From positions 17,299 to 81,298 of the forward strand of contig JBMZJQ010000001.1 of the NCBI GenBank assembly GCA_049617635.1: a stretch of DNA of 64,000 nt, written 5' to 3'. This DNA is from Poseidonia sp. Its GTDB lineage: Archaea; Thermoplasmatota; Poseidoniia; Poseidoniales; Poseidoniaceae. Under the pieces are notes generated by a model. It made no database searches. It saw only the letters and a list, made by a program, of their open reading frames with translations, and had not been told where the DNA came from. This document shows positions 10,464 through 25,582 of this stretch, in pieces. A program made the position numbers and the translations under genes. Position 1 is the stretch's first letter. The number at the start of each line of letters is the position of its first letter.

Positions 10464-10895
10464 TCAGAACAGCGAGAAGCCTCGCCCAACGATGCTTGTG
10501 ATCAACACAACAGCAGCGAGCATGAAGGCAATGCGAATGCCGACGTGCTGCCCTTGTTCTTCTTGCGCTTCTCGCACAAAGGCATAGCCAAGCATGGTCA
10601 ACGCACCGGTCTGGAGAACGGCACTCATGGCGCCGAAGAGGGAGATTTGGAACATGTAACTGTCCACATCGTCTGCGTACTCTTCGGCTTCCTTGGTGTC
10701 GGTCATGTCGTAATCGGCCGTATCAGGCATCGAAGAGGCGAATGGAAGTTCACTGAAGGCTGCGGAAAACACCAACAACGCAAGGCCAATCATCAACCAT
10801 TTCTGAAAGGTGTAGATGTTGCCTTTCAACATGCCTGAGGCAGGAGGCTGGTAGGGTGAAGCGGCAGCAGGTGCAGGCGGTAGCGGAGGTTGCAT
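10464..10895 (-). CDS. membrane protein (about 3 TM), last gene of the archaellum-strand array
   Basis: Pro-rich N-terminus, three hydrophobic helices and an acidic loop. First ATG at 10895; the track start 10913 is TTG. Confidence 0.5.
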   Translation of the reverse strand: MQPPLPPAPAAASPYQPPASGMLKGNIYTFQKWLMIGLALLVFSAAFSELPFASSMPDTADYDMTDTKEAEEYADDVDSYMFQISLFGAMSAVLQTGALTMLGYAFVREAQEEQGQHVGIRIAFMLAAVVLITSIVGRGFSLF

Positions 10896-10939
10896 TGAAC
10901 GGAAGAAGAACAAAACGGAGTATCAATGTTCCCGAATCG

Positions 10940-12742
10940 TCATACGCTGAAGATACTGCTCGCACTTTCCAACAAGACGGCCGTGATCAATGAGGCTATG
11001 CCGGCCACCCAAGTGAGTTGAATCATCTGCCCGATGGCGCTTGTTCGTGTACCACCTCGAAGCCGAGTGGCGATGGAAGACACCGCCACGACCTGCATGA
11101 TAATGAGCAACGAGATGATGATTTTGAACATCCGGATGTTGTCGTCCACGGATGAGGCATCTTCCATGACCGGTAACGCAACACCGCCACCAAAGTCTGA
11201 AAGAGCACCGACATCGGTTCCCACCAGTCCAGTCGCCACCCCAGCGATAGCGTCACCCAACTGCAACACGATGGCCGTGGTGACGTTCAAGGAGGCAACG
11301 CTCGAAATCAACAACCCGAGCGCAACACCCCACATGGTGTTGGCTGACAGCGACCGACGGTTCCGTAGCGAAAGCAGGTTACCGACCGAACGGGACACCA
11401 TTTCGGCGGTTTCTGCAGGTTTTCCAGAGGATTGTGAACCCTCGATGTAAATGCGAGTGTATCGAGAAATCACGGCCGAGTTCGTGTCGGCGGTGAAGTA
11501 ATCCCAGGCTCTGTCGGAGTCAATGCGGGTGGCCAACCGTTTTTCAAGGCGGTCAATGGAGTTGTCAAGCATACCGAAATCAATGCCACGAAGGGCTTTG
11601 ATGGTCGCAGAGGGTTCGGCTGAACGCGCCTGCGCCGTTCCACCCAGAGCACGAATGAAATCCGGATAGGTCTCGTCGCGGCGTTGAATCTGACCCTCTT
11701 CTCGGCGCACCAAGAAAGCAGGAACAAGCAAGGGTGAAAACGGAATGGCAATGAACAGCAGCCCGTATTTATCCCATTGGGACGTGATGGTGTCCCAAAT
11801 CCAAATCAGCGTGAACACCGCCAAAACGAACAAGCCGGCGGTGATGGCCCCTGAAAGAAGCAAGGAACGACGGAAATTGATACGGAACGGTGTGTCCATT
11901 TGGTCCCTCGCAAAGGTCTGGTCCTTCGGAATTGTCGCCCGAAATGCGAACACTGCGCCGATTTGAATGAACATAAACAGAAGCGATGCGAGCAACAAAA
12001 ATCGCAAACGACTGGCGATTTCAATGGGTGTATCGTTGGCACTCCCGACCTCGAAAAGCACCAAATGAATGCCAGCGATCACCAAACCGAACAAGCCGGC
12101 GGTCACCAGCGAGACGTAAATCTCCTTGAGTGTATCCACCGACTCAAGGCGTGTGTCGTACAGCGTGTTGTACTGCTCAGCAATCGTTTCCTGCTCTGAG
12201 CGCATGAATTCGTCGATGGGTTGACCCGCTTCGATGGAGAACGCCATTCGGTCAAGGAAGTCCGACCACAGCGGTGAAGGGCTCTGATGAGCGACGATAC
12301 GGGCGGCTTCGGGAAGGGAAGTGTGCCATTTTTCGACCAAGGTCTCGATGCGTTGCACTTCCGAGGCCAACTCACCGTAATCTCGCATTTGTTTGAGAAT
12401 ATCAAAAATGGATTGGGCGCCCACTTCACCGATGGAAAGAATCCCCATACGCGTAATGAACATGTGCATCTCGGCTTCGATGAGGGTAGCTGAGCGTTGA
12501 ACTTCGAGCACCGGGTACGCCACGGCCGCCACCAAGGACATGGCGGTGAGCATAATGACGAACAGTACACCGGTAAAACCGGCGAACAAGGCGCCTTCAC
12601 CCAACCCTCCGGTGAGGAACACCAAGACGATGGCCGTCAGAAACGTCACGGCGACGATGGGCGCCACGTAGATGGCGAGGAAACGCCCGACGGGCATTTC
12701 AAGACGTCGAAGGGCAATGTGCCAAATTGGCATGCGCTCCAT
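10940..12742 (-). CDS. arlJ: archaellum assembly platform membrane protein ArlJ (FlaJ)
   Basis: 600-aa polytopic protein with TadC/GspF-like architecture, immediately downstream of arlI. Confidence 0.85.
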   Translation of the reverse strand: MERMPIWHIALRRLEMPVGRFLAIYVAPIVAVTFLTAIVLVFLTGGLGEGALFAGFTGVLFVIMLTAMSLVAAVAYPVLEVQRSATLIEAEMHMFITRMGILSIGEVGAQSIFDILKQMRDYGELASEVQRIETLVEKWHTSLPEAARIVAHQSPSPLWSDFLDRMAFSIEAGQPIDEFMRSEQETIAEQYNTLYDTRLESVDTLKEIYVSLVTAGLFGLVIAGIHLVLFEVGSANDTPIEIASRLRFLLLASLLFMFIQIGAVFAFRATIPKDQTFARDQMDTPFRINFRRSLLLSGAITAGLFVLAVFTLIWIWDTITSQWDKYGLLFIAIPFSPLLVPAFLVRREEGQIQRRDETYPDFIRALGGTAQARSAEPSATIKALRGIDFGMLDNSIDRLEKRLATRIDSDRAWDYFTADTNSAVISRYTRIYIEGSQSSGKPAETAEMVSRSVGNLLSLRNRRSLSANTMWGVALGLLISSVASLNVTTAIVLQLGDAIAGVATGLVGTDVGALSDFGGGVALPVMEDASSVDDNIRMFKIIISLLIIMQVVAVSSIATRLRGGTRTSAIGQMIQLTWVAGIASLITAVLLESASSIFSV

Positions 12743-12754
12743 GTCTCATCATCC

Positions 12755-14470
12755 TCACTTGTGATTGACCCCAACCCACGTGTCGATGGCGCGGTCGAAA
12801 TGCTCCCAACCGTTGGAGTAATACAAGCCCAGGAGGTCAAAGACATCGTCGTAATGCGTGAGGTCGCGGTCGGCCATGCGCTGAATAGCAGCCGCCCGGC
12901 GAAGCATTTCATCGTAGATGTCACGCTTGTTGGCAAACCCTGCCATGGCGGCGATCTTGTTCTCGAGGAGATGCGACTGGAACATACCGCGGAAGTAGTG
13001 CTTGTCTTTCACCGGGTCCCACTCAAACATACCACGGGTCAACACACCGTCGCTGTGCTTGTTGTACCCAATCACCTCATCAATTCCGGTGATACGACGA
13101 GCGATACCGCCGCCGGGTGCCTCGACGACTTCTTGGAAAATCGCAAAGTTGAGGTTGTCGAAGAAACGGATGGGGACGTTGATTGGGTCGCCGGTGAAAC
13201 GCTGAATCATCTTGACGATGGACGATGCGTGGAAGGTGGCAATGACCGGGTGACCGGTTTGCATAGCTTGGAACGCCGTGGCACCCTCAACACCACGGAT
13301 TTCACCGATGATGATGTAGCGAGGGCGGCTTCGCAACGCTGCCTTGAGTAGGTCAAACATTTCCACTCTCGAATCTTCGTTCTTGGCATCACGGGTGACC
13401 AGACGCTGCCAAATCTTGTGGCGCACCTTCACTTCAGGTGTGTCCTCTGCCGAGTAAATCTTGACGTTGTGGTCGATGAACGGCAAAATAGCATTCAGCG
13501 TGGTGGTCTTTCCGGAGGCCGTTTCTCCGGACACGAGAACGGACATGCCGTATTCGAGACATATCCAGATGTAGGCCGCTTGTTGGGCCGACATCGTCCC
13601 CCACTGGATGAGTTGAATCACCGAAATCGTTTCTTCGGCGAACTTACGGATGGTGAACGAAGGTCCGAGCATGGACACGTCGTCGGAGAAGATGATGTTG
13701 ATACGGGAACCGTCAAGCAGCACACCGTCGATGATGGGTTTGTTGTCCGAGACTGGTCGACCGATACGCTCGGACATGGCTCGAAGGTAACGAGAGAGCA
13801 ATTCCCGTTCCCTGAAACGGATGTTCGAGGTGACCATCCCAAACACCTTGTGGTCCATGTGGATGTGTTTGAGGCCAACCGAGTGAATATCTTCCAACAT
13901 TTCGTCAGAAAGCAAGGGTTCGAGAGGCCCGTTTCGAATAAGGTCACGAATCACAACGTAGGTGAGGCGCTCTCGTTGGGCCTGCGTGACCGTCAAGCGT
14001 TTGTCGTCCATTCCAACCAACTCCCACATACGACCTTGACGGCGAACGAGGTTGTTGGCTTCAGAATCGAGGATGGTGTAGCGCTCAATCATTTGTTGAA
14101 GGATGTTCTCAAATTCGGTGTCGGTGGTGAAGGAAGGAGCGGTTGGTGCCTCTTGAAGCAGGGTCTCAACGAGTTCACGTCGGATGTTTTCTTCCTCTTC
14201 GGTCAATTGCGGTTCAAGACCGAACCAGAGGACGGTCCCTCCACCGTCCTCGTCGGCAGGTGGTTCGTAGATATGGACAAAGATGGGTTCTCGAGTGACA
14301 TAAATCAGGTTCAGAGGCCGTTGTTTCTTGGCGTCTCGGTCAAGTGGGCCGTAGTAGATGGGGCGAGAGCCGTAACGCATCTCGAAATCCCGCACCCATT
14401 CGGCGACGTGGGGATAAGCAGCCATGACGCCGTTGAGGTCGCCTTTCGCAAATCGGGGTTCGTCGCTCAT
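12755..14470 (-). CDS. arlI: archaellum motor/assembly ATPase ArlI (FlaI), type II/IV secretion ATPase family
   Basis: Walker A GETASGKTTTLNA, Walker B-like PRYIIIGEIRG. GGAGGGGAG SD upstream of the ATG at 14470. Confidence 0.95.
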   Translation of the reverse strand: MSDEPRFAKGDLNGVMAAYPHVAEWVRDFEMRYGSRPIYYGPLDRDAKKQRPLNLIYVTREPIFVHIYEPPADEDGGGTVLWFGLEPQLTEEEENIRRELVETLLQEAPTAPSFTTDTEFENILQQMIERYTILDSEANNLVRRQGRMWELVGMDDKRLTVTQAQRERLTYVVIRDLIRNGPLEPLLSDEMLEDIHSVGLKHIHMDHKVFGMVTSNIRFRERELLSRYLRAMSERIGRPVSDNKPIIDGVLLDGSRINIIFSDDVSMLGPSFTIRKFAEETISVIQLIQWGTMSAQQAAYIWICLEYGMSVLVSGETASGKTTTLNAILPFIDHNVKIYSAEDTPEVKVRHKIWQRLVTRDAKNEDSRVEMFDLLKAALRSRPRYIIIGEIRGVEGATAFQAMQTGHPVIATFHASSIVKMIQRFTGDPINVPIRFFDNLNFAIFQEVVEAPGGGIARRITGIDEVIGYNKHSDGVLTRGMFEWDPVKDKHYFRGMFQSHLLENKIAAMAGFANKRDIYDEMLRRAAAIQRMADRDLTHYDDVFDLLGLYYSNGWEHFDRAIDTWVGVNHK

Positions 14471-14483
14471 CCATCTCCCCTCC

Positions 14484-15209
14484 TCAGCTCACCGCCGTGA
14501 TGTCGACGATGAAGCCCATGCCGGGCTCAACACGCCAACCGATGGACGATTGAATAGGTCCAGCAGCACGCAGGTAGCGTGTGACGATCATCGATCGCTT
14601 GAGGTCACCGCCGATCAGCGTCGTGGAGAGGTCCAACACCACTTCTGCTCCAGAACGGAGCAGGTGGAGCAACTTGGCATCCATCTCGTCGGCGTCAACG
14701 GTGAGCATCAACGTGCGTCCTGTGGAAGCGATTTTCCGCATGCGTTGAACCAATTCGAAACGCTCGGTTTCGGTGGTGTTCTCTGGCATCAAGGAACTGG
14801 CAGAATCGATCACAACGATGTCGGCGTGCTCAATGGCTTCGCTTTCAAGCACCTCGTTGAGGCCGACATCAGCGATGGGTTCAGCGATGGTTCCAAAGCG
14901 TGAAAACACCATTAACGCACCGCTGGCGAGGGCTTTTGTTACGCCGTATCCGATGGATTCCATCTGTTCAATCCAACCACGTGTCGTCAGTTCGGTCGTG
15001 ATGACCAAGACCTTCACGCCGTTTTCAAGAAGACCGTGCACGAAGCGTTGGCTGACGAGGGATTTTCCTGCACCCACCGGGCCTTGCAGCACGGCAAGAC
15101 TCCGATTCGGTATCCGAAGGCCGAGGGAATCGGCCAGACTATCGGTTTCAACCTCGTAGGGGAAGCCGTCTTCCACCGGCGTGGGGTTTTCGCCCAAGGC
15201 ATCAATCAT
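14484..15209 (-). CDS. arlH: archaellum KaiC/RecA-like ATP-binding protein ArlH (FlaH)
   Basis: Walker A GPVGAGKS and Walker B-like ADIVVIDS. ATG at 15209 overlaps the arlG stop as ATGATTGA. Confidence 0.85.
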   Translation of the reverse strand: MIDALGENPTPVEDGFPYEVETDSLADSLGLRIPNRSLAVLQGPVGAGKSLVSQRFVHGLLENGVKVLVITTELTTRGWIEQMESIGYGVTKALASGALMVFSRFGTIAEPIADVGLNEVLESEAIEHADIVVIDSASSLMPENTTETERFELVQRMRKIASTGRTLMLTVDADEMDAKLLHLLRSGAEVVLDLSTTLIGGDLKRSMIVTRYLRAAGPIQSSIGWRVEPGMGFIVDITAVS

Positions 15210-15690
15210 GCAATCGAACCTCCAAACTGATGGATGTTGAACCACGGTATCCACTGGTGACCTCAGACGAAACCGCCACGGTCAACGCAATATCGTCACC
15301 GGACGAGTACGACCAGGTTCCGGAGTCAACCGTGACCTCGAGCAGGCGCGTGTCGTCCCATTCCGTTCCGGTGGGAACAAGCGTATCGACGATGGAACCG
15401 GTCACAGACTCGCCATCAACGATGACCACGAGCGTGGAAGGGTCGAGCAGGTTCTCACCGATGTTCTGCAAATAGAACGTGATCTCCTGGTTGGTCGTGT
15501 CCAAATCCACCATCATCGGGTCGCCAGCAAAGGCCACACCTGTCGCCTGTTCAGCTTGGAGAGCGGCCACGTTGACCGTGCTGCTCTGCGCCATTTGGCC
15601 CCACTGATTGATCAGAAGGATACTGACGCTTCCCGACACCAAGAGGGCTGTGACCAGCATGATGAACGAGGATGAGCCGCCGTCTGCCAT
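15202..15690 (-). CDS. arlG: archaellum protein ArlG (FlaG)-like
   Basis: 162 aa with an archaellin-like N-terminal hydrophobic helix followed by a beta-rich domain. It is second after the archaellins in the canonical F-G-H-I-J order. GAGGTGAT SD. Confidence 0.6.
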   Translation of the reverse strand: MADGGSSSFIMLVTALLVSGSVSILLINQWGQMAQSSTVNVAALQAEQATGVAFAGDPMMVDLDTTNQEITFYLQNIGENLLDPSTLVVIVDGESVTGSIVDTLVPTGTEWDDTRLLEVTVDSGTWSYSSGDDIALTVAVSSEVTSGYRGSTSISLEVRLHD

Positions 15691-15699
15691 GGTATCACC

Positions 15700-16359
15700 T
15701 CATGCAAGGGGGAGTCCGACTGTTTGTCCGAGAACCGTCAGAGCGATTCGTTCGTACGAGGACGCTCCGTCTTCGGGCCACTCCACGACGATGGTTTCGC
15801 CGGGGTACCAGTTCGTGCTGTTGATCGTGGGGGTGTAGGCTGATGCAAGGTTGGTCGGTGCAGGACCGCTTGAACCGTCAAGGAAAATCCATCCATCTGC
15901 CAAACCAACCGTGGTCGAACCCACGTTGGTCATGTTGGCGTAGATGAAGTTGCCAATGTCGACGGTGAAAGTGGCCCCTGATGCTGACCCGGGTTGCCCG
16001 GTGGGGTCGACAATCACGGTGGGAGCCGAGGAATAATTACCGCGAATGGTGATGTACACGGTTTCAATTCCTCCAGAAGCGTCCACGGTGAATCCACCGA
16101 GGAAGCCTCCCGTTCCACCCGATGTGGTCAACGTCCCGTTCAGATAGCCGCTGCCGTTGCTGGCAACGGTGACGGACAGCACAGCGCCTTCCCACAGGGT
16201 CGCATCGTCAATTCGGATTTCAGGCGTAGCGTCGGCGGCCTCTTCGATGATCTCGAGACTGGCATCCAAGCGGTCGTCAAGTGTTTGGATTGCAATCGCA
16301 AACACCAACAACAGCGACGTGCCAATCACGAGAGCACCAATACCAACCGACGCACCCAT
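15700..16359 (-). CDS. arlF: archaellum protein ArlF (FlaF)-like, with Gly/Ser/Thr-rich insertion
   Basis: The N-terminus MGASVGIGALVIGTSLLLVF resembles the FlaF N-terminal helix, and a beta-rich domain follows. The position before arlG fits. GGAGGA SD. Confidence 0.6.
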   Translation of the reverse strand: MGASVGIGALVIGTSLLLVFAIAIQTLDDRLDASLEIIEEAADATPEIRIDDATLWEGAVLSVTVASNGSGYLNGTLTTSGGTGGFLGGFTVDASGGIETVYITIRGNYSSAPTVIVDPTGQPGSASGATFTVDIGNFIYANMTNVGSTTVGLADGWIFLDGSSGPAPTNLASAYTPTINSTNWYPGETIVVEWPEDGASSYERIALTVLGQTVGLPLA

Positions 16360-16362
16360 CCA

Positions 16363-17214
16363 TCATTCCTCCGATGTGCCTTGCCCTGCTCGCCAAGAGG
16401 CGACCATGGCCGAAAACAACAACAACTGACGGTGTGGCAGGTGATCCAACAAAGCGGAATCTGCGTCCCCTGGTTCAGCGAGCTGGACGATGGCCAACAC
16501 GTTGGATCCTTCGGGTTCCGTCAGCATGCCTGAATCGATGGCCTTCTGCGTAAAACTCACCGCCGCCATGCCCGACATGTGGTCGAGCAAGAGGGCAGCA
16601 ACCGCAGGTGCACCGGCAGAACCGCTGGCGTTCCCTGCCAATCCCAGCGTGTGGGGATTGGACAAGAAGGGGTTGGCGGCCAAGGCTTGCGCTTCGTACA
16701 ATTCGACGAGGCGCCCTTGGTCGTCTTCCATCATCCGGGCCGTTCCGCTGACATTCAACACTTCGCCGCTTGCCGAGATGATTCGTTCACCGGCAAAGCC
16801 GGTGTCGTCATCGTCCTCGTCTTCGGCAGCATCGTCCTCATTGACACTTGCAGCGGCCGCGGGGGCCTCTTCCAAGCGAATTTCGACCATGCGGAGGACA
16901 TCCTCCACCATGTCAAGACGACTGCTGATGAGCCGTTCAAGACCCGAAGTGTCGACGGTTGCCGTGCCAACAGGCTGCGGTACACTCGGTGGAGCGAGAC
17001 TCGCTGCGACGTTGGGCACGCTTTGCTGGCTGTTGATCCGAGCCTTGGTGGGCCCCGGCGAGATGGTCCAAGCATCCTCTTCCGTGAGCATCCCTTGTTC
17101 AGGGAACGGCACCTGTTCGATTGCCACGTTGGACAAAATCTTCAGGCGCTCTTCGCTCAGGGACTGGTCTGCGCTTTTGCCTTCTCCCGAGTTTCCAGTA
17201 AATGGCCAAACCAT
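16363..17214 (-). CDS. acidic cytoplasmic protein of unknown function in the ArlC/D/E (or ArlX) slot of the archaellum operon
   Basis: 283 aa with no TM or signal peptide and the low-complexity segment EDDAAEDEDDDDTG. GGAGGT SD 6 nt before the ATG at 17214. Flanked by arlB and arlF. Confidence 0.7.
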   Translation of the reverse strand: MVWPFTGNSGEGKSADQSLSEERLKILSNVAIEQVPFPEQGMLTEEDAWTISPGPTKARINSQQSVPNVAASLAPPSVPQPVGTATVDTSGLERLISSRLDMVEDVLRMVEIRLEEAPAAAASVNEDDAAEDEDDDDTGFAGERIISASGEVLNVSGTARMMEDDQGRLVELYEAQALAANPFLSNPHTLGLAGNASGSAGAPAVAALLLDHMSGMAAVSFTQKAIDSGMLTEPEGSNVLAIVQLAEPGDADSALLDHLPHRQLLLFSAMVASWRAGQGTSEE

Positions 17215-17229
17215 TTCAGAACCTCCTTC

Positions 17230-17253
17230 TGAGAATCCAAGGAAGGATTCTCA
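17230..17253 (-). promoter_or_regulatory. perfect hairpin (9-bp stem, 6-nt loop) in the arlB / downstream-gene spacer
   Basis: tGAGAATCC-aaggaa-GGATTCTCa, read directly. It lies between the arlB stop (17261) and the SD of the next gene. Confidence 0.5.
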
Positions 17254-17260
17254 AAAGTGA

Positions 17261-17890
17261 TCAGACCACAACTGCGCCACGGCTTGCATCGTTGACCTTC
17301 AGGACGTCGTAGGTTGAACCGCCACCAACAACGTGAACGTAGAGCGTACCCTTGATGTTCTCGTTGAACATGTGGTCGGGAGCACAATCGTTGTTGGCGT
17401 TGTCGTCAATGTCGAGGGAAACACGGTACGAAATACCTGCTTCCACGGTGGAGACAGCGGTGGGCGTGGCAGATGCATCATCGAGAGCAAAGACAATGCT
17501 CGCTGGTGTAGCAGCGCCGTCGGTGAAGTCACCGGCCAAGCGGTCGGTGGTAGCAACACCAGCACCGCCACCGTCAGGGTCTTCGCAGAAGACCTGCCAG
17601 AGGATGCCGTCCACAGCGGTGTCGTCGGAACCGGCTGCCAATCGGAAGTACATCACGATCGATTCAGAAGGTTCGTCAACGAACACGTTGAGAATCTGAA
17701 TCTTTCCAGACATCTCGTCCGTCGTGTCGTCACCGGTCGATTGGGCGTTCTGTTGCAACTTTTCAGCGGTTTGAATGATCACCGCTGCAGCCACGGCGGC
17801 CACAAGGATCAGGGCAATGAACACAATCATTGCACCGATACCGATGGCTGCCAGTTTGTCGTTTTCCATGTGTGTGTTATTCTTCTTCAT
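17261..17890 (-). CDS. arlB: archaellin ArlB (FlaB), copy 1
   Basis: Class III signal peptide plus the conserved hydrophobic N-terminus AIGIGAMIVFIALILVAAVAAAVIIQT. ATG at 17890 has a GAGGTGA SD 5 nt upstream; the track start 17899 is GTG. Confidence 0.9.
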   Translation of the reverse strand: MKKNNTHMENDKLAAIGIGAMIVFIALILVAAVAAAVIIQTAEKLQQNAQSTGDDTTDEMSGKIQILNVFVDEPSESIVMYFRLAAGSDDTAVDGILWQVFCEDPDGGGAGVATTDRLAGDFTDGAATPASIVFALDDASATPTAVSTVEAGISYRVSLDIDDNANNDCAPDHMFNENIKGTLYVHVVGGGSTYDVLKVNDASRGAVVV

Positions 17891-17900
17891 GTTGTTCACC

Positions 17901-18551
17901 TCAAACTACTGAGTCACCCACCGTGGGGGCGCTTCCGTATTGGAGTTCCTCGTACGTGCTACCGCCGCTGTCGACGGTAAAGAGAAGGATGTGGTCGGCG
18001 TTGGCCGTTGGGATGCACTCATCGATCTCCATCACCACGACGTACGTGGTGCCAGGATCAATGGTGATGACGGGGGTCGCCACGGTTTCACCGTTGCCGG
18101 TGTGTATTGTGGCCCCTGCCAATGTTCCTTGAGCGAACACCGTGGAATCGGCGTTAGTGCCGGTACCGCCAACGGCACCGTCGTCACCGAGACTCTCGCA
18201 GATCACCGTGTAACCGATGTCGTCACCCTGTGTGGGCTGGGAGCCTGGCGCCAATTCAAACGTCACAAACAGTTCTGCTGCATCAGCATCACCGCCTGTG
18301 CCGCCCAGGGCGTTGTCAGCACCAAGGTCCAGTTCCTCAATGATGACGTTGAGGAGCGTCATCTTGGTAGACATCTGCTCTTGGGTGTCATCACCGCTGG
18401 CTTGTGCGTTTTGCTGCAACTTCTCGGCCGTCTGGATGATGACCGCTGCTGCAACCGCTGCAACGAGAATCAACGCAATGAACACAATCATTGCACCAAT
18501 ACCAATGGCAGCGAGGTTATCGCTTTCTTCTTTCTTCATTTCTTGCTTCAT
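17901..18551 (-). CDS. arlB: archaellin ArlB (FlaB), copy 2
   Basis: It has the same N-terminal 40-residue core as copy 1 and a divergent C-terminal domain. GGTGAT SD 3 nt before the ATG at 18551. Confidence 0.9.
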   Translation of the reverse strand: MKQEMKKEESDNLAAIGIGAMIVFIALILVAAVAAAVIIQTAEKLQQNAQASGDDTQEQMSTKMTLLNVIIEELDLGADNALGGTGGDADAAELFVTFELAPGSQPTQGDDIGYTVICESLGDDGAVGGTGTNADSTVFAQGTLAGATIHTGNGETVATPVITIDPGTTYVVVMEIDECIPTANADHILLFTVDSGGSTYEELQYGSAPTVGDSVV

Positions 18552-18610
18552 ATTATCACCATTTTGTGTTTTTTTTGCCTCCCGCTCCTTGCGGGTGGAA
18601 TTGGATGCGG
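18552..18610 (-). promoter_or_regulatory. arlB upstream spacer: GC hairpin (CCCGC-N5-GCGGG), A8 tract and GGTGAT SD; possible internal archaellin promoter
   Basis: Read directly. The A-rich tract sits about 25-30 nt upstream of the ATG and could act as a TATA-like element. The polarity is wrong for an oligo-U terminator. Confidence 0.3.
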
Positions 18611-19564
18611 TCAGAGTTCACCTCCCTGACCGAGGTTGATGCGAAGCGGCATGCGTATGATGGCCACCTCGTCTGGAGCAAGATTTCTGATGAAGGGGAC
18701 TTCTTCTGCGACGAAGCCTGAAGGAATCCAGGGGGTAAGGAGGACCTCTGACAACGGTTCCATGGCCCGATTTTGCACGCGCATGGTCACTGTAATTTCA
18801 CCCGAGCGCATCTCGTATGCGGTAGCGACGGACAGTTTTCGGGTCAACGGGATGTCTTCAGAACTCAGTCGGAAGTTGGGTTTGATTTCAAAGCGAAGCG
18901 GGATGTTTCCTCCCGGGGCGATGATGGGGAGGTCCACGTTGGCAGGCGTGGCGGTCCATCCATCGGGGACCGGGGGCTTCAGGCGGAGCATGGGCATCGG
19001 AATCGGACCGTCATTGATGATGCGGACCAACAGCACACCGGACTCACCGCCTGCTGGCCAACGCGTGTCAACACCCATCCAAAAGTGGCGGAAGAGGAAG
19101 GGGTTGAGGGTGGAGGTGTTGCCGCCGATCATGTCTTCCAGCAAATCTTCTACTTCGGTGGTGGAGGCTCGAATATCACCCATTTCTGCGGCAGCCGTGG
19201 CTTCACGCAGCTTGTAGAGAATACGTTCTGCCTCCTCGAGGGTGATGTGCTTGTGAACCAACAAGCGGTGAAGCATGGCGATGCTTCGGCGCAGGGTGAG
19301 CACGTCCTCTTCCAACTCGTCCAAGGTGCGTTCGGCTCGCTTGATGGTTTTCTTGGCTTTCGAAAGTTGGTGAATACCAAGGTAGACCTTGGCTTCGGCC
19401 AAATCCATCTCGGTCTCGGTCAACGAGGGGTTTTCTCGCCGAGCCGCCTGACGCGCAATTCGCTCAAGCGTCTGAGAGGCTTCCAAGATACCCTGCTCCC
19501 GCGCAGCACGGTCCTCCTCAAGCATGTCGCTTGGCGTGTCCATGGCAAAGGTCTCGTCAGCCAT
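18611..19564 (-). CDS. coiled-coil N-half plus beta-sandwich C-half protein, no signal peptide, unknown function
   Basis: 317 aa from ATG 19564, with a perfect GGAGGTG SD 7 nt upstream. The ATG overlaps the stop of the giant upstream gene (ATGGCTGA). Charged helical N-half. The C-half contains LLVRIINDGP and VTMRVQNRAM, which are CARDB-like strands. Confidence 0.75.
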   Translation of the reverse strand: MADETFAMDTPSDMLEEDRAAREQGILEASQTLERIARQAARRENPSLTETEMDLAEAKVYLGIHQLSKAKKTIKRAERTLDELEEDVLTLRRSIAMLHRLLVHKHITLEEAERILYKLREATAAAEMGDIRASTTEVEDLLEDMIGGNTSTLNPFLFRHFWMGVDTRWPAGGESGVLLVRIINDGPIPMPMLRLKPPVPDGWTATPANVDLPIIAPGGNIPLRFEIKPNFRLSSEDIPLTRKLSVATAYEMRSGEITVTMRVQNRAMEPLSEVLLTPWIPSGFVAEEVPFIRNLAPDEVAIIRMPLRINLGQGGEL

Positions 19565-22500
19565 CGCTTTCCACCTCCGTGGATGCATCAATGTCTTCTG
19601 AGTTCGGGCTCAGGTCAACGGGATCTTTGGCGACCTCGCCTCCGGATGCTGAGGCGACTGATGGAACAGGTTCACCGAGTATCGCACCGAAATCCAAGCC
19701 TTCATCGGCCAAATCGTTGAGCAAGCGGGCGGGGTCGTTCAAGTCACGCTCGATGCGGATGGACTTGACTTCTGCATCGGTCATGCGGCCGTAGAGGTTG
19801 CCGTACATCTTGTCCGAGCGCTTGAGCAGGTACCACACACCAAGCATGATGGCGAAGAAATAGACGGCCATGGCCGCCAAGTTGTTTTGATCGGCGGAGA
19901 GTTGTGGCGGCAATCCAAGCACGATGGCGAGCATCCCCAGCACGGGGATGGAGAGAATGATGGTCAGTTGGCGTCGACTGTCGGTCAGGGCAACGAAATG
20001 GTCGGAGTAAACGGTCGAGATGCCCTTCCGTGCACGCTGATAATCCTCGTGAATCAAACGGAATTCTTCGCTTGACTTCCAAGTCATGCGCCAAATCCAC
20101 AGCGCACAGAGAATCAGCACGGCTGGACCCCAGTACTGGACATGGAACAAATGGAAGGCGAATCCGAAGGCGATCACGCCGGCGTAGACGCCTCCGAGTT
20201 GCCACTTCTCAGATTGTGTCGAAAGGCGAACGAAAACAAACGAAAGCAGGAAGGCGACCACACAGGCCACGAATGCAACGGAGAGGTCGGGGGACCACGA
20301 GCGAACCGTTTCTTGGCCGAGCTCGACGGATTGACCGTCTCGTTGCACGGCACGGGAGACGTCGTTGGCCTCGTTGTTGCCTTCACCGACGTAGAGGAAG
20401 CCGAGCGACGCATCGCATTGAATGTCTTTGCTCACTTCCCACCAATCGATGGTTCCGGGACGAACATCCCAGACGAAGGTGTGCGTTTCTTGAGAACCCA
20501 AGAGAGGAACGATGTCCGGTTGACTCAATATCTCCACATCGCCGTGACAGTCCAATGCAGCGGTGATTCCGAGTGCTTGGGCGGTGCCAAGGTTACGAAC
20601 ATCCACGCTGTAGGTGGTCTCTTGTCCCTCGAAGAAGGCATCGGGGTCGGCTGGACCCTGGTCCTCGATGGACGGGTCGGCAAACACAGCGAGTTTGTAG
20701 GTGAAAATGGCCTGGTCAAACACGGTGTATGCGTTGTTTTCATCGGGATGATAGAGTCGGAATTTCAAATCCCAACCGTCTCCGGCCAGGATGTTTGGTG
20801 AGGTAGGCGCGTCAACCACCAACTGAATGGGGTCGGTCGTGACCCACGGCTGACGGGTTGGAAGCGTCAACCGAGACTCAGCGCCAAGTGAGGTCAAACC
20901 GCATTCCTGGTTGAGGTCAAGAGGGAAGTCGGTGTTGTCAATGCGTACAGCAAAGGACCATTCGTAAAGCGATTCGTTTTGATCGAGTTCCTCAACGTCC
21001 AGCAAACGTTCGGCATCGCACAGTTCCAACTCGTAGGCGACAGCACTCTCAGGCCCGGTGGGAATGTGGGAATAATCGATGGAATAGACCGTCGGACCGT
21101 TTGAGGGATTGACCGCAGTATCGCCGTCCTCGTGGAACCGGTCCATGCGAAGTTCGGTGGTGTATTCGGCGCTTCCTTGCACCCCCGCGTCCACCGGGGC
21201 AATGGATACGATGAGGTTGGCTGCAAGGGTCAGGGCCGGTTCTGGTGCCACGGCTCGAACGGTGAACGAGAACGGTGTTGCCACCCCTCGTTGTAGACTG
21301 AGTGTTGACGGGGCTGCGTTTGAGACTTCCCAATCGGTGCTTGGCAGGGTCAAACCACCCTGAAGCAAAGTGTAGGTCACATCAACATCAATGTCGGTGT
21401 TCCCGGTGTTGGTGATGATCACGTCCCATGTACGGTCGTAACCACGGTGGTAGTATTTCTCGCTGGGCCAGTTTTCAACTTCAACGATGAAAATTGGCGC
21501 CACGATGAAGTTGAAACGGTGCACCTTCAGTTCGTCCTGGGTGGTGGCGTTCAGGATACGCATCGTCACAGGGATGATGGTGCCGTCGAGCATGGTGTTG
21601 TCATCACCAAGGGCGGGAACCTCCACGACGATGGACCCGCTTTGGGTTTCGTCGACAGCGAGGGTCAGCGGTTGGGTAGCAGGCGAAACGCTCCATCCCC
21701 CGCTCACGTTCGTTTCGATGATGATGTTTTCAACCAGGTTTCCGCTGTTGGTGATCGTGAAGTTCACGGTTTGATCTTCGCCCGGAATCACACCGATTTG
21801 GTCCGGCGTGTCGACAATGATTCCGTGTTCTTCGCTGATGTTCCCGAGAATGTCCGCTGAGAGGTTCAATCCCGAATCGGCATTGGACACCCAAAGCGTT
21901 GCTTTGTAATCGGTGGCGGCCAACGCATCGATGGTGGGCGTCAGTCGAACGCGTACGGTGGCTTCGTAGCCAGCCCCAATGGCGACCACGGAGGGTGTTT
22001 CAAGCACGTAGTCCACCTCGCCGGCCTGCGAAGTGTCCAACCACACCGAGAACGTGGCAGGCGTGTTCCCGATGTTGCTAACGACGACGCTGGTGGTGAT
22101 GGATTCGCCGATGGTCAGATTGATTTCCTGACTGGTCGGGCTGAGCGATGCATTCACTTTCTCACCCACGCGGATGGGAACATCGAAACTCGAAATGTAC
22201 GTCCCAGACGTCAATTCCTGGATTTCGATGGTCAAACGCTCAACGCTGTTCGCTGGAGCCATCGGGTCGGTGGTTATCACAAGCGGGAAGGTTTTGATGT
22301 GGTCGGTGGCGTTTGAGGGGTAGTTGGCCACGTCGGCAGGTACCGAGAGCACCGTGGTTGAGGGCATGAGGCTGCCCGAAGAAAAAGAGGCGACCCAGCC
22401 TTGGGGAAGGGAATCGGTCATGATCAAACGATAAGATGTCATGTTGTTGCCGGTGTTCGCCAACGAAATGTCGTACGACGTTTCTTCACCAACCATGACA

Positions 22501-24491
22501 TCAAGCGTGGTTCCGTTGTGCCCCTCAGCTCCCAACACAGGCGGGATGTTGATGTTGAGCGATTGCGTCACCGCTGAGGGGATCACGCCCGAACCTTGGT
22601 GCACGCTTCCAAGCGTGGGTTCTGCCGTGATGAGGACCGAAAGGGTTCCAGAAACCGGATAGTCATCATCGGGGCCTTGGATGGTCAACACCGCATCACT
22701 AGAGTCGCCGAGCGACATGTCGGTGAACAACGAGGGCGTCAAACCAATGGCCCAGCGGTCGGCTTCCTCGAAGCCTCCCGATGAATCGGATGTGAACACA
22801 GGCATATCCAAGGTCAAGGTGGCGTTCACGGTCTCGGCAAGTTCGCTGACGAGGTTGTGACGAACCTCAACATTCAGGTCAAGAATTTCCTCAAGACCCA
22901 TTCCGAGGCGAGCTTGCATGACTTGCTCCACCGTCATGTCGATGCTATCGGTGGGCAAGCCCGGGTCAACCACGATGACGGGAAGGATCGATACGGGTGT
23001 GGCGTTGAGGTGAGGCACACCGCCGTTGGTCGAAGCCGCTTGCACCCAAACCGACATCGAGTCACCAGCGCGATTGTACTCCGCTGAAACCAGAGGACGC
23101 TTGATCACCGGTGGCGTCACCGACAGTGAGACGTTCACCGATTCACCCGGGGCCAATGTCCCGGTGCTCTGGCTGGACAGGTCAAGATCCCAGTTGATTG
23201 GGTTGGTGGAGATGCCGGCATTCAGAGCGAAGGTGCTTGGAGCATTACCGGTGTTTTCGATCTTGACTTGGAGCGTGGTGCTCTGTCCGGGCGTCAAACT
23301 CTTCGAATCAGCGTCCATTTCCACGTGCGCTTCGTAGGATTCGCTGGCCAAAACGGTGGTCGTCACCACCTTGGTGAAACTGCCACCATTGGACTCAACG
23401 GTCAGTGTCACGAGTTCTGAATCGGTTCGAAGTGCGTCCGAAGGAACAGCGACTTGGACAAAGACGGATGTGGTGACGTTGGGGGAAATGGTCGCCGTTT
23501 GGCTTGAAGGAGACATACTTGAAACCCATCCGTTCACGTTGGATTGGCTCACGGTGTAGTCGTCAGAAGCGACGCCCGTGTTCTTCACGATGAAGGTGAG
23601 CGTGGAGGTTTGTCCTGGCTCAACGCTGCGGTCGTGCGCAGCGGTCAATGTGAAGTCGTAGTTCGAAAACACCACACGTTGGTTGAGGAATTCAACCGAA
23701 GTGGTCCAGCCAGTACCCTCGGCGTACATCGTTCCGACGACGTCCCATTCACCGGTCCGAGCCGTGGCGTCAAACGTCATCGCCACCTCTTCGGCAACGG
23801 CTCCACCGTTGTACAATGAACCTGGTCGTACCACTGGAACGATGTTGGACATCTCAGAAAACGTGTTGCCCGTCCCGACCTGCGTGGCGTTTATCCAGAA
23901 GCGAGCCGATTGATTCTTCACGCCGTCGTTGCGCACGGCGATGTCGAAGTCGTGAACGGTTTGTGACCACACCACACTGTTGCCTCCGGTCATGGGTTGG
24001 GGAATGTTGACCACAGGAACGCTGGAGGCTTGATAGCGGCTCACATTGACGATCATTTCATCCTGATTGTTGTTGTTGTTCACGTCGGCTGGACCTGACA
24101 CGCGGGCCTTGAGAATCTGGTTGTTGCCGATGGTGGCCGACCACGAAAACACGGTCACGGAACTTGAGGCACCGGCTTGAATCACGCCAAGGTCCGTGCT
24201 TTCGAGCACCACATCGCCAGAAGATGCCGTTCCTTGAAGCAACAGGGAAAGCGAGGCTTGGCCGGCAGCAAGGCCGATGTTGCGAACTTGAATGCGGACG
24301 ATGTGGGTGGCATCTTCGACTTCGATGCCTCCGCCAAGCACCATTGAACCAGCGTCATCGAGCGTGAACGAAGTGACGACGAAATCCGGTGTGGAGCGCC
24401 CTTCGGCACCGGAAGCGAGCGGAGACAAACTGGTGACCAGCAGCAGCGTGACCAAGGCGAGGGGGAGGGTCCGATTAGACAGGGTCGGCAC
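19557..24491 (-). CDS. giant envelope protein: signal peptide, at least 9 CARDB/NEW3-like beta-sandwich modules, about 5 C-terminal TM helices, acidic cytoplasmic tail
   Basis: Continuous ORF. Recurrent x-[VI]-x-N-x-G strands: IQVRNIG, IAVRNDG, FIVKNTG, VKIENTG, ISLANTG, VVVSNIG, FTITNSG, VIITNTG, VDVRNLG. Signal peptide SNRTLPLALVTLLLVTSLSPLASG. The start is uncertain: GTG 24491 lies inside GGAGGTG, and CTG 24482 lies 6 nt after it. The track extension to 24722 overlaps the upstream gene and looks non-coding. Confidence 0.85.
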   Translation of the reverse strand: MPTLSNRTLPLALVTLLLVTSLSPLASGAEGRSTPDFVVTSFTLDDAGSMVLGGGIEVEDATHIVRIQVRNIGLAAGQASLSLLLQGTASSGDVVLESTDLGVIQAGASSSVTVFSWSATIGNNQILKARVSGPADVNNNNNQDEMIVNVSRYQASSVPVVNIPQPMTGGNSVVWSQTVHDFDIAVRNDGVKNQSARFWINATQVGTGNTFSEMSNIVPVVRPGSLYNGGAVAEEVAMTFDATARTGEWDVVGTMYAEGTGWTTSVEFLNQRVVFSNYDFTLTAAHDRSVEPGQTSTLTFIVKNTGVASDDYTVSQSNVNGWVSSMSPSSQTATISPNVTTSVFVQVAVPSDALRTDSELVTLTVESNGGSFTKVVTTTVLASESYEAHVEMDADSKSLTPGQSTTLQVKIENTGNAPSTFALNAGISTNPINWDLDLSSQSTGTLAPGESVNVSLSVTPPVIKRPLVSAEYNRAGDSMSVWVQAASTNGGVPHLNATPVSILPVIVVDPGLPTDSIDMTVEQVMQARLGMGLEEILDLNVEVRHNLVSELAETVNATLTLDMPVFTSDSSGGFEEADRWAIGLTPSLFTDMSLGDSSDAVLTIQGPDDDYPVSGTLSVLITAEPTLGSVHQGSGVIPSAVTQSLNINIPPVLGAEGHNGTTLDVMVGEETSYDISLANTGNNMTSYRLIMTDSLPQGWVASFSSGSLMPSTTVLSVPADVANYPSNATDHIKTFPLVITTDPMAPANSVERLTIEIQELTSGTYISSFDVPIRVGEKVNASLSPTSQEINLTIGESITTSVVVSNIGNTPATFSVWLDTSQAGEVDYVLETPSVVAIGAGYEATVRVRLTPTIDALAATDYKATLWVSNADSGLNLSADILGNISEEHGIIVDTPDQIGVIPGEDQTVNFTITNSGNLVENIIIETNVSGGWSVSPATQPLTLAVDETQSGSIVVEVPALGDDNTMLDGTIIPVTMRILNATTQDELKVHRFNFIVAPIFIVEVENWPSEKYYHRGYDRTWDVIITNTGNTDIDVDVTYTLLQGGLTLPSTDWEVSNAAPSTLSLQRGVATPFSFTVRAVAPEPALTLAANLIVSIAPVDAGVQGSAEYTTELRMDRFHEDGDTAVNPSNGPTVYSIDYSHIPTGPESAVAYELELCDAERLLDVEELDQNESLYEWSFAVRIDNTDFPLDLNQECGLTSLGAESRLTLPTRQPWVTTDPIQLVVDAPTSPNILAGDGWDLKFRLYHPDENNAYTVFDQAIFTYKLAVFADPSIEDQGPADPDAFFEGQETTYSVDVRNLGTAQALGITAALDCHGDVEILSQPDIVPLLGSQETHTFVWDVRPGTIDWWEVSKDIQCDASLGFLYVGEGNNEANDVSRAVQRDGQSVELGQETVRSWSPDLSVAFVACVVAFLLSFVFVRLSTQSEKWQLGGVYAGVIAFGFAFHLFHVQYWGPAVLILCALWIWRMTWKSSEEFRLIHEDYQRARKGISTVYSDHFVALTDSRRQLTIILSIPVLGMLAIVLGLPPQLSADQNNLAAMAVYFFAIMLGVWYLLKRSDKMYGNLYGRMTDAEVKSIRIERDLNDPARLLNDLADEGLDFGAILGEPVPSVASASGGEVAKDPVDLSPNSEDIDASTEVESDG

Positions 24492-24966
24492 CTCCAGACG
24501 GTTTTTCGAAGCGGTCAATGGTGACCGCTCTGCCTTGCCGCTTCCACTGGGCGAGCAACTGACCGAGCAAGGCTTCGTGTTCGGCATCGGTGATGCCGAG
24601 GCGGCGACGCTCCTCCCAAAGCAACAACTGTTCGGTACGGGTGAGGAGCGCGTCTCGAAGGTACAACTCAAGGGTGCGCCGATACGCATCCCGGTCCGAA
24701 ATGGCATAGACGATGGAATCACCTGGGACTTGATCGGCGCGGTTCTGAATCAGGTTCCCCAACATCAAGGCCTCGTCGTAGCTCAAATGACGCTTGTCGA
24801 GGTCGGTTTGAATAGCACTGGCGATTTCCTGCAGCGTGTATTTGCTATCAGCACGCTGAATTTTCTTGAAGTGTCGACGCGCCTTCCGGGACATGCGTGC
24901 GCCGACCATGGGTTCCTGTGAGTCCTGCCAGTTATTCAAAGAATCGGTTGTAAAGCATGATTTCAC
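24475..24966 (-). CDS. small basic/helical protein, unknown function; first gene of the minus-strand array
   Basis: 163 aa from GTG 24966; ATG alternatives at 24909 and 24894. AATAAAAAG lies about 25 nt upstream of the GTG, so the transcript may be leaderless. Its stop overlaps the start region of the giant gene. Confidence 0.6.
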   Translation of the reverse strand: MKSCFTTDSLNNWQDSQEPMVGARMSRKARRHFKKIQRADSKYTLQEIASAIQTDLDKRHLSYDEALMLGNLIQNRADQVPGDSIVYAISDRDAYRRTLELYLRDALLTRTEQLLLWEERRRLGITDAEHEALLGQLLAQWKRQGRAVTIDRFEKPSGGADPV

Positions 24967-25096
24967 TCATTTTGGCTTACTTTTTATTCAATTTGCATAA
25001 TCGCCATGCTGCGATGCTTTTCGCTCACTCAACAACGCAAATTGTTTGAAAAAAACAAGCAATTCCTTTATTGGACGAGGGTTGGAGGTAATTTTC
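24967..25096. promoter_or_regulatory. AT-rich divergent promoter region (archaellum-strand array to the left, bcp operon to the right)
   Basis: This is the only markedly AT-rich gap in about 15 kb. It has TATA-like tttttattca and cctttattgg, an A7 tract, and a GGAGGT SD 7 nt before the bcp ATG. Confidence 0.5.
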
Positions 25097-25582
25097 ATGA
25101 GCCAACCCGTCGAACTCAGCGTGGGCGACCAAGCCCCCGACTTCACCGCCACCGATCAAAACGGAACGTCCCACTCGCTTTCTGAATACCTCGCCAACGG
25201 CACGTCCGTCATTCTCTACTTCTATCCGAAGGATTCCACACCGGGCTGCACCACACAGGCCTGTGATTTCCGGGACAACCTTGCCCTGTTGAATCAAGGC
25301 GACTACGTGGTGTTTGGTGTTTCGAAGGATTCGGAAAAATCTCACCAAAACTTTGTCAACAAGCAGGAATTGAATTTCCCCCTCTTGATGGACGAAGACC
25401 TCGCTCTCCATGACGCCTTTGGGACGTGGAGAATGAAGAAAAATTACGGTAAGGAATACATGGGCTGCGCCCGCTCAACGTTCGTGATTCGGCCCGATGG
25501 TACCTTGGGATGGTGCCGATACAACGTCAAAGCCAAAGGTCATGTTTCCATGCTCATGCGTGAACTCGGTCTCGGTCAGTGA
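25097..25582 (+). CDS. bcp: thioredoxin-dependent thiol peroxidase (Bcp-type peroxiredoxin)
   Basis: FYPKDSTPGCTTQAC motif. ATG 25097 has a GGAGGT SD; the track start 25046 lacks support. Confidence 0.9.
   Translation: MSQPVELSVGDQAPDFTATDQNGTSHSLSEYLANGTSVILYFYPKDSTPGCTTQACDFRDNLALLNQGDYVVFGVSKDSEKSHQNFVNKQELNFPLLMDEDLALHDAFGTWRMKKNYGKEYMGCARSTFVIRPDGTLGWCRYNVKAKGHVSMLMRELGLGQ

Follow-up and report, generated by a model that had tools for sequence, protein, structure and literature searches.

A Poseidoniales-specific three-gene module beside the archaellin genes encodes a giant Ig-like-domain membrane protein with two cytoplasmic partners and may form an archaellum accessory complex

In the marine archaeon Poseidonia sp. 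three genes encoding so far uncharacterized proteins lie directly upstream of the archaellin genes arlB1 and arlB2 on the same strand. They were analyzed in a window of 64,000 nucleotides (nt) of contig JBMZJQ010000001.1 (assembly GCA_049617635.1), i.e., the whole stretch of DNA considered here. The closest homologues of the encoded proteins are labelled Poseidonia or Candidatus Poseidoniales, which places the source in Marine Group IIa (MGIIa), family Poseidoniaceae. The module consists of open reading frame (ORF) i, encoding a small helical protein, a giant gene encoding a membrane-anchored array of immunoglobulin (Ig)-like domains, and ORF iii, encoding a protein with a coiled-coil-like half and two β-sandwiches. 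It is restricted to the order Poseidoniales and is linked to arlB there. We tentatively propose, with a confidence that falls short of an even chance, that the products of the three genes assemble into an accessory complex, which is specific to the order, spans the envelope and cooperates with the archaellum, be it in anchoring, in positioning or in the coupling of contact. This reading is favored because the linkage survives rearrangements of the locus, because the genes are translationally coupled and no archaellum (arl)-free context was found, and because the giant protein has a conserved cytoplasmic face, a fixed size and two dedicated cytoplasmic partners.

The window contains a complete euryarchaeal-type arl cluster 3' of the three-gene module, all on the minus strand. 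ORF i (24475..24909) starts with ATG and encodes a predicted cytoplasmic protein of 144 amino acids (aa), which is basic at its N-terminus and is modelled with six helices. The giant gene (19557..24491) starts with GTG and encodes 1,644 aa with a signal peptide, the Ig-like array and five transmembrane (TM) helices. ORF iii (18611..19564) encodes a predicted cytoplasmic protein of 317 aa, in which the coiled-coil-like N-terminal half is followed by two NEW3-type β-sandwiches. The giant gene begins at its GTG within ORF i, the last 17 nt of which it shares, and a GTG at position -17 is the most frequent arrangement of these two genes among relatives. The stop codon of the giant gene is overlapped by the ATG of ORF iii as ATGGCTGA, with the Shine-Dalgarno sequence GGAGGTG 7 nt upstream, and this ATGnCTGA overlap is retained in the majority of related loci. 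As read from the overlapping stop and start codons, ORF i, the giant gene and ORF iii are translationally coupled to one another. The spacing between ORF iii and arlB amounts to exactly 59 nt (18552-18610). A preliminary description of this DNA had listed three minus-strand ORFs upstream of the archaellin genes, their overlaps, the Shine-Dalgarno sequence of ORF iii and the 59-nt gap, and each of these was borne out on inspection. ORF i has to be corrected: it was given as about 163 aa from a GTG at 24966, and its start is most likely the ATG at 24909, because the frame between a conserved block at 24929-24948 and this ATG is not kept in relatives; homologues mostly have a length of 139-145 aa. 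Regarding coding status, 543 homologue clusters were found for ORF iii and 527 for ORF i, and synonymous sites are free to vary beneath conserved residues, showing that the genes are under selection. A further minus-strand ORF (25025-25411, 128 aa) was considered as fourth member of the module and was rejected as the shadow of a plus-strand gene. This plus-strand gene (25046-25582), with GGAGGT and an ATG at about 25090, is transcribed divergently from the module, and its counterparts in related loci encode AhpC-TSA/Redoxin peroxiredoxins.

An exhaustive search of the ORF iii profile against 1.84 billion cluster representatives resulted in 65 matches, mostly fragments, and a few giant multi-Ig proteins at marginal scores; all informatively named ORF iii matches are Poseidoniales or carry broader labels such as Euryarchaeota archaeon. 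Relatives of ORF iii were found in 173 GTDB species genomes, of which the best 80 loci were fetched. The giant-ORF iii pair adjoins arlB in all of the 76 Poseidoniaceae loci that reach arlB. Every locus of sufficient length shows the same order on a single strand, namely ORF i, giant, ORF iii, arlB, arlB, p283, arlF, arlG, arlH, arlI and arlJ, where p283 encodes a Poseidoniales-specific protein of 283 aa. Seven further diverged lineages, including Thalassarchaeaceae, likewise encode a giant protein, an overlapping ORF iii homologue and then arlB, at an ORF iii identity to the window of only 28-43%. Of the eight full-length ORF iii clusters at 50% identity, seven were checked and all adjoin arlB. 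Tully (2019) showed in a figure that orthologous hypothetical proteins flank the Marine Group II (MGII) motility operon (PMC6336850), and the generalization that every Poseidoniales arl cluster carries the module is drawn from this figure and from the loci described here. Cluster counts (1,080 for p283, 543 for ORF iii and 527 for ORF i) were considered as a test of the universality of the module and were dropped, because counts at 90% identity depend on the rate of change of a protein and on the word prefilter.

Housekeeping neighbors of the module, i.e., the genes for the peroxiredoxin, a flavin reductase, an HhH-GPD glycosylase and PolX, are also syntenic in many lineages. As the neighborhood is widely syntenic, the informative cases are the exceptions with changed flanks. 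In loci L084-L086 both flanks are replaced and ORF i is absent, yet giant, ORF iii and arlB remain joined; L089 differs downstream and L091 upstream, and both keep the linkage to arlB. The expectation that the genes stay beside arlB in relatives thus holds across the order Poseidoniales, including loci with changed flanks. These cases also bear on the simplest rival explanation, in which the adjacency is inherited synteny of an unrelated envelope system in a poorly rearranged region, with no functional coupling to the archaellum. The peroxiredoxin, flavin reductase, glycosylase and PolX genes, which are conserved neighbors in MGIIa and in some lineages of Marine Group IIb (MGIIb), agree with such an origin. 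It is nevertheless regarded as highly improbable, as the linkage persists with both flanks replaced or with upstream or downstream genes changed, no arl-free context occurs among the seven family clusters examined, and the gap to arlB spans merely 37-105 nt and bears conserved elements. Among the related loci, L091 carries an extra gene of 1,054 aa between ORF i and the giant gene. Two of the locus-bearing contigs, L011 (NZEQ01000038.1) and L077 (CAXQWT010000116.1), are filed under metagenome-assembled genomes of a Verrucomicrobiales bacterium and of Salipiger bermudensis, respectively, which looks like binning contamination in public records.

The giant protein carries nine [VILF]x[VILA]xNxG strands at a spacing of about 110-125 residues. 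It exceeds the curated Pfam thresholds for CARDB (53.3 bits, cut-off 22.7), NPCBM_assoc (NEW3; 56.6 bits, cut-off 24.4) and HYDIN_VesB_CFA65-like_Ig (59.7 bits, cut-off 25.5) and thereby falls, by domain profile, among the CARDB/NEW3 (COG1470-type) surface proteins. Weak matches to choice-of-anchor and putative S-layer models were obtained as well. The protein is predicted to contain about a dozen Ig-like domains of the CARDB/NEW3 type. At the C-terminus three strongly and two moderately hydrophobic segments are all kept in the alignment, indicating five TM helices (residues 1403-1556, 19824..20285 on the minus strand by hydropathy); the cytoplasmic parts comprise a 40-residue basic loop and an acidic tail. 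The preliminary description, which gave about 1,640 aa with a signal peptide, at least nine β-sandwich modules, a polytopic anchor of about five TM helices and an acidic tail, agrees with these results. Its count of 18-20 N-x-S/T sequons also stands, with 19 found; an enrichment of glycosylation sites is not supported, as 14.8 are expected from the composition and the difference is not significant. Conservation within the protein peaks in the cytoplasmic loop that links TM3 to TM4 (residues about 1471-1508; minus strand, nt 19968-20081). Between MGIIa genera, the block identity of the membrane region and this loop is 52-66% compared to 30-45% for the ectodomain, and the loop motif EEF..IH.DY.RAR.G is still present in MGIIb giants, while the acidic tail is unconserved. 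Across the order the length of the protein ranges from 1,557 to 1,664 aa, i.e., it deviates by about 6% at most, with sequence identities of 23-33%. Neither the ectodomain nor the TM domain was found in a second copy in the window or in 93 related loci (1.4 Mb). In the MGIIb loci L081 and L087, positions 1-2870, a few kb upstream of the module, encode a same-strand CARDB/PKD protein of 1,158-1,231 aa followed by a protein of 154-156 aa; tblastn detects no paralogy of this CARDB/PKD protein to the giant.

This architecture is also compatible with a giant protein that acts as surface adhesin or S-layer-like protein and for which ORF iii provides the anchor or adaptor in the cytoplasm. The arl genes would then be neighbors due to co-regulated particle attachment, and the giant would not physically belong to the archaellum. 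The CARDB, NEW3 and HYDIN-type Ig domains above threshold, the weak choice-of-anchor and S-layer matches and the fast-evolving ectodomain agree with such a role. Archaeal type IV pilus loci include genes for large S-layer-like proteins that have a TM domain at the C-terminus (PMC4858521). Furthermore, Rinke et al. argue that the archaella of MGII serve adhesion, chemotaxis genes being absent (PMC6461757). We consider this explanation, the main rival of the accessory complex, doubtful. The ectodomain has a length that is fixed across the order, unlike in repeat-variable adhesins, and this near-constant length despite divergence fits a structural element better. The strongest constraint acts on the cytoplasmic loops, the protein has two dedicated and highly conserved cytoplasmic partners, and sequons are not enriched. 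In addition, the family was seen only in arl-linked contexts, and non-motile Poseidoniales would need a general envelope protein as well. With searches based on ORF iii, the coupled partner ORF iii was found only linked to arl, which argues against a general envelope role.

The AlphaFold model of ORF iii (mean predicted local distance difference test score, pLDDT, 66) shows five helices in residues 13-146 and β-sandwiches at residues 161-229 and 244-309, in agreement with the earlier prediction of a helical N-terminal half and two β-sandwich-like units. The invariant linker GGNTSTLNPFLFRHFW joins the helical half and the sandwiches. No hydrophobic or TM segment was detected by hydropathy. Searches for ORF iii, ORF i and p283 were run as single sequences, as profiles and as member-by-member scans of the families. 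For ORF iii no meaningful match was obtained in Pfam, NCBIfam or PDB sequences beyond generic NEW3 and coiled-coil noise, and Foldseek returned only generic Ig/ASH sandwiches at low TM-scores for the model. The NEW3 match is below threshold for the protein of the window (E 0.029), and nine of ten family members match with a best E of 4.8e-5. The first sandwich is weakly similar to the giant's own CARDB/NEW3 domain, and one ORF iii homologue bears the UniRef label 'COG1470 family protein'. A motif LNPFL is invariant in two predicted cytoplasmic proteins, ORF iii (residues 152-157, about 19094-19111) and p283 (residues 180-184, about 16663-16677), across MGIIa and MGIIb. It may be a docking motif shared by both proteins, or it may have arisen by chance. 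Paralogy of ORF iii and p283 was rejected, as hhalign aligns just 17 columns around LNPFL with a probability of 2%.

ORF i is the best-conserved member of the module. Its AlphaFold model (pLDDT 75) consists of six helices and matches no PDB fold (best E 0.6), and its sequence has no match in Pfam, NCBIfam or PDB sequences. Profile and fold searches hence leave all three proteins uncharacterized, as had been anticipated from inspection of the ORFs. Two conserved non-coding blocks lie upstream of ORF i. The AT-rich block TTATGCAAATTGAATAAAA (24982..25000, minus strand) was found by upstream alignment in the divergent gap toward the plus-strand peroxiredoxin gene. It is kept across Poseidoniaceae genera, occurs once within the window and is a candidate for the transcription factor B recognition element (BRE)/TATA region of a module promoter. 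The 20-nt block ACCGATTCTTTGAATAACTG (24929..24948, minus strand) is located 19 nt upstream of the ATG of ORF i. It is near-invariant among 18 diverse loci and also occurs once in the window; in the 20 nt that follow it sequence conservation and reading frame are lost. Variants of this block, CCGGTTGTTTGATAA and CCGATTGTTTGATAA, are present in the MGIIb loci L087 and L089. The block is a candidate leader or operator-like element.

The gap between ORF iii and arlB contains a hairpin, CCaCCCGC-aagga-GCGGGaGG (18576..18603, minus strand), which is preceded by a conserved TTCCA and followed by an A-rich tract and a GGTGA Shine-Dalgarno sequence. Its stem varies in a compensatory manner between CCCGC/GCGGG, CCTGC/GCAGG, CCCTC/GAGGG, CCGGC/GCCGG and CACTCG/CGAGTG, and the loop length ranges from 3 to 6 nt. 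A covariance model was built from 17 copies and searched over 1.4 Mb; it recovers the gap of the window and that of 60 of the 80 Poseidoniaceae loci; a single further match, a weak one, lies elsewhere. In the alignment 99% of the cells are paired and five of six pairs show double-sided changes, no slid register comes close and none of 500 shuffles reaches this pairing, values that are somewhat favored by the fitting of the alignment to the covariance model. At the Rfam gathering score the hairpin belongs to no family, the sole match in the window being a tRNA at 376-450. A palindromic operator is disfavored by the loop of 3-6 nt and by stem sequences that shift between close relatives, and an intrinsic terminator is disfavored by the A-tract, instead of a T-tract, after the stem. 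A covarying hairpin of RNA type in the gap implies that the gap is transcribed. A second hairpin, GAGAATCC-ttcctt-GGATTCTC (17231..17252, minus strand), a perfect stem of 8 base pairs (bp) and the stronger of the two, is located directly after the arlB2 stop and before the Shine-Dalgarno sequence of p283; at this position loci L001-L080 have hairpins of 5-15 bp and of unrelated sequence. Stem-loops thus bracket the archaellin pair arlB1-arlB2.

The preliminary description had further suggested a single transcription unit of 14.5 kb that extends from ORF i to the end of the arl cluster. This is permitted, as the coding strand from 10464 to 24966 contains no T6 run and the ORF iii-arlB gap in the Poseidoniaceae lineage of the window contains no TATA-like box; the two hairpins and the TATA-like boxes in MGIIb weaken the case for it. 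Across lineages the gap to arlB is 37-105 nt long with conserved elements, and MGIIb loci have the longer gaps, with ACTATSATATAC-like TATA-like boxes about 40 nt before arlB. The simplest reading for the lineage of the window is that long or overlapping transcripts are formed and that stem-loops around the archaellin genes set the mRNA level. A promoter hidden in the 3' end of ORF iii was considered and rejected: synonymous sites of the last 60 codons are unconstrained, save for GGAGGT at codons -5/-4. At these codons (18623-18628, minus strand) two invariant glycines are nearly always encoded by GGA GGT, with A at the first wobble site in 78 of 79 cases. This conserved GGAGGT is located about 10 nt before the ORF iii stop, and no start codon follows it at Shine-Dalgarno distance. 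A scan for sigma-70 promoters and terminators is uninformative for an archaeon and gave counts as expected from shuffles.

The unique and conserved non-coding blocks before ORF i and within the gap to arlB could also point to a sensor or regulator of the archaellum. In that case the giant would sense contact or polymers, and ORF iii and ORF i would relay the signal to the motor or to transcription, with the basic N-terminus of ORF i perhaps acting on the 20-nt leader block or on the arlB-proximal elements. Such a function would be in line with the membrane-spanning architecture with its conserved cytoplasmic loops and with ORF i being small, N-terminally basic, very conserved and encoded first. 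No chemotaxis system is reported in MGII, leaving a need for other input (PMC6461757). We regard this role as improbable: no DNA-binding, kinase, HAMP, PAS or other signaling domain was detected in the three proteins, ORF i is absent from L084-L086 while the rest is kept, and the variable loop and compensatory changes of the gap hairpin fit an RNA structure and not a protein-binding palindrome.

The evolution of the module was compared to that of the archaellum genes by the identity of each window protein to the homologues of the other family (MGIIa compared to MGIIb). ORF i is 50-61% identical between families, which equals the conservation of ArlH (50-64%) and ArlJ (49-63%), followed by ORF iii (28-43%) and the giant (23-33%). 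ArlB1, ArlB2, ArlF, ArlG and partly ArlH (14484-18551, loci L001-L080) occur as cassette types that conflict with the species tree. The ArlB/F/G proteins of congeners are just 42-46% identical at an ArlI identity of 97%, while those of other genera reach 62-65%. Such a distribution suggests that lineages exchanged the genes for the exposed filament and the stator. A single common pattern, distinct from that of the cassette and in line with the species tree, is seen for ORF i, the giant, ORF iii, p283, ArlI and ArlJ; p283 is encoded in the middle of the cassette. By following the species tree the module belongs to the stable frame of the locus. That the giant does not co-vary with the ArlB/F/G type is again in accordance with the adhesin or S-layer explanation.

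Downstream of the module, arlB1 (17901-18551) and arlB2 (17261-17899) encode archaellins (Pfam Arch_flagellin, E 1e-18 to 1e-19 for the two proteins). They are followed on the minus strand by p283 (16363-17214), an arlF-like gene (15700-16359), arlG (15202-15690), arlH (14484-15254), arlI (12755-14470), arlJ (10940-12742) and p149 (10464-10913), encoding a small protein with two TM helices at the end of the cluster. In L084-L086 an Arc_PepC_II (prearchaellin-peptidase-like) gene is located directly after arlJ. Makarova et al. (2016) reported that all archaellated archaea share seven components, including the very divergent FlaC/D/E/X (PMC4858521). The position of ArlC/D/E between the archaellins and arlF/arlG is filled by p283, and the module is located outside of it, upstream of arlB1. 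The p283 protein of the window matches no family in Pfam, NCBIfam or PDB sequence searches; of ten members of the p283 family, two match FlaC_arch weakly (best E 0.05). In Poseidoniales the counterpart of ArlC/D/E/X, in divergent form, may be p283. No match to FlaC_arch (PF05377) or Arch_fla_DE (PF04659) was obtained for ORF i or ORF iii, even at E<=10 or E<=1, singly or as families. ORF iii also differs from ArlX, which has a single N-terminal TM helix and a cytoplasmic coiled coil that forms a ring around ArlH/I, in that it is helical and lacks a hydrophobic segment. With p283 in the FlaC/D/E/X slot and faint FlaC_arch matches, the module is probably an extra and not the missing scaffold, which weakens the earlier suggestion that it supplies the cytoplasmic scaffold or polar cap. 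A bolder variant of the accessory complex, in which the module and p283 constitute a new class of archaellum base, is unlikely in our judgment. Here the motor would be tied to a polytopic, trans-envelope Ig-array protein via a coiled-coil/Ig adaptor; in a lineage without a chemotaxis system, this complex would take over the anchoring and positioning that the S-layer/ArlFG link, ArlX or the polar cap provide elsewhere, and the LNPFL motif shared by ORF iii and p283 may mediate this tie.

In the proposed accessory complex, the giant would be exported and display about a dozen Ig-like domains outside of the cell, with its five helices holding it in the membrane. ORF iii would dock to a surface made up of the cytoplasmic loop and the helix after TM5, and ORF i would probably bind there too. 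The overlapping stop and start codons would couple the amounts of the three proteins. A conserved promoter and leader ahead of ORF i would belong to the module itself, transcription could continue from there into arlB in the lineage of the window, and the hairpins around arlB1-arlB2 would allow a much higher level of archaellin mRNA via processing or stabilization. Instead of being a free-standing adhesin, the complex would act with the archaellum, either by anchoring or positioning its motor within the MGII envelope or by transmitting surface contact to that motor. The sequence data show the gene structures, the domain architecture, the coupling, the restriction to Poseidoniales and the linkage to arlB; any part in motility, co-transcription with arlB and physical interaction of the three proteins are inferred.

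Several observations weigh against this proposal. CARDB/NEW3 arrays are typical of adhesins and surface proteins. Adjacency to arlB alone is weak evidence, as the housekeeping genes are likewise syntenic, and the loci were gathered via ORF iii homologues, a sample that does not exclude arl clusters without the module. The TATA-like boxes in MGIIb mean that co-transcription with arlB is not a conserved feature of the linkage. If p283 is the ArlC/D/E/X counterpart, the seven universal components appear to be complete without the module. Finally, the lack of co-variation of the giant with the ArlB/F/G type argues against a specific contact to the stator or the filament.

No archaea are more abundant in surface ocean water than Poseidoniales, of which to our knowledge none is in culture. 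In ecological terms it is open whether the MGII archaellum is used for swimming or sticking (PMC6461757, PMC6336850). Tully (2019) had already drawn these conserved hypothetical genes, without analyzing them (PMC6336850), and in the literature searched we found no description of the families, their architecture, the order-wide coupling or the RNA elements. As to how this organelle is integrated and used, the most obvious clue that is still unexplored is the conserved set of proteins, totaling 2,100 residues, encoded beside the arl genes. If it is part of the machine, it would constitute a new solution to the anchoring and organization of the archaellum motor, touching on the question of ArlX, ArlCDE and the polar cap, and would supply concrete targets for cryo-electron tomography and heterologous reconstitution. 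If it is instead an adhesin complex, it would support the view of particle attachment in MGIIa and provide a marker gene set for that lifestyle. In either case the bracketing hairpins and the swappable ArlB/F/G cassette are leads on archaellin expression and surface variation.

Similarities to known systems are found at several levels. Pilus operons such as E. coli papBA show differential mRNA stability. In analogy, highly expressed filament-subunit genes would be bracketed by stem-loops within a longer transcription unit, although the hairpins of Poseidoniales could mark separate transcript ends instead. The repeated domains of the giant recall those of the COG1470/CARDB/NEW3 surface proteins, a type to which the ORF iii sandwiches also belong. 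Such labels apply to domains and imply no function, and a NEW3-type domain without signal peptide, as in ORF iii, is unusual for a normally extracellular fold. Archaeal type IV pilus loci encode large secreted Ig-rich proteins with a C-terminal membrane anchor, along with adhesins and additional membrane or intracellular proteins, which were proposed to be accessory (PMC4858521). These were described for pilus loci and not for the archaellum, for which seven components are given there (PMC4858521), and they have a single-pass anchor and no dedicated coiled-coil/Ig cytoplasmic partner, in contrast to the five helices and conserved cytoplasmic loops of the giant. In Chloroflexota, accessory PilN/O-LysM genes are located upstream of arl loci, and their proposed role is to hold the machinery in an envelope foreign to it (PMC12488501). 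The lineage-specific genes directly upstream of the arl locus and the proposed envelope anchoring are common to both cases; the Chloroflexota proteins are bitopic, of PilN/O type with a peptidoglycan-binding domain, and are unrelated to the giant Ig array with its polytopic anchor, and the type of envelope differs. The cytoplasmic motor scaffold or switch-ring proteins ArlX (of Thermoproteota) and ArlC/D/E (of Euryarchaeota) are, like the proteins of the module, lineage-specific, fast-diverging, coiled-coil-rich and encoded in the arl locus. ORF iii differs from them by the absence of a TM helix and the presence of two Ig-type sandwiches, and the module is located upstream of arlB instead of between arlB and arlF. 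In ArlX a membrane anchor and a cytoplasmic coiled coil are united in one protein (PMC8978795); in Poseidoniales these two features would be split between the TM domain of the giant and ORF iii.

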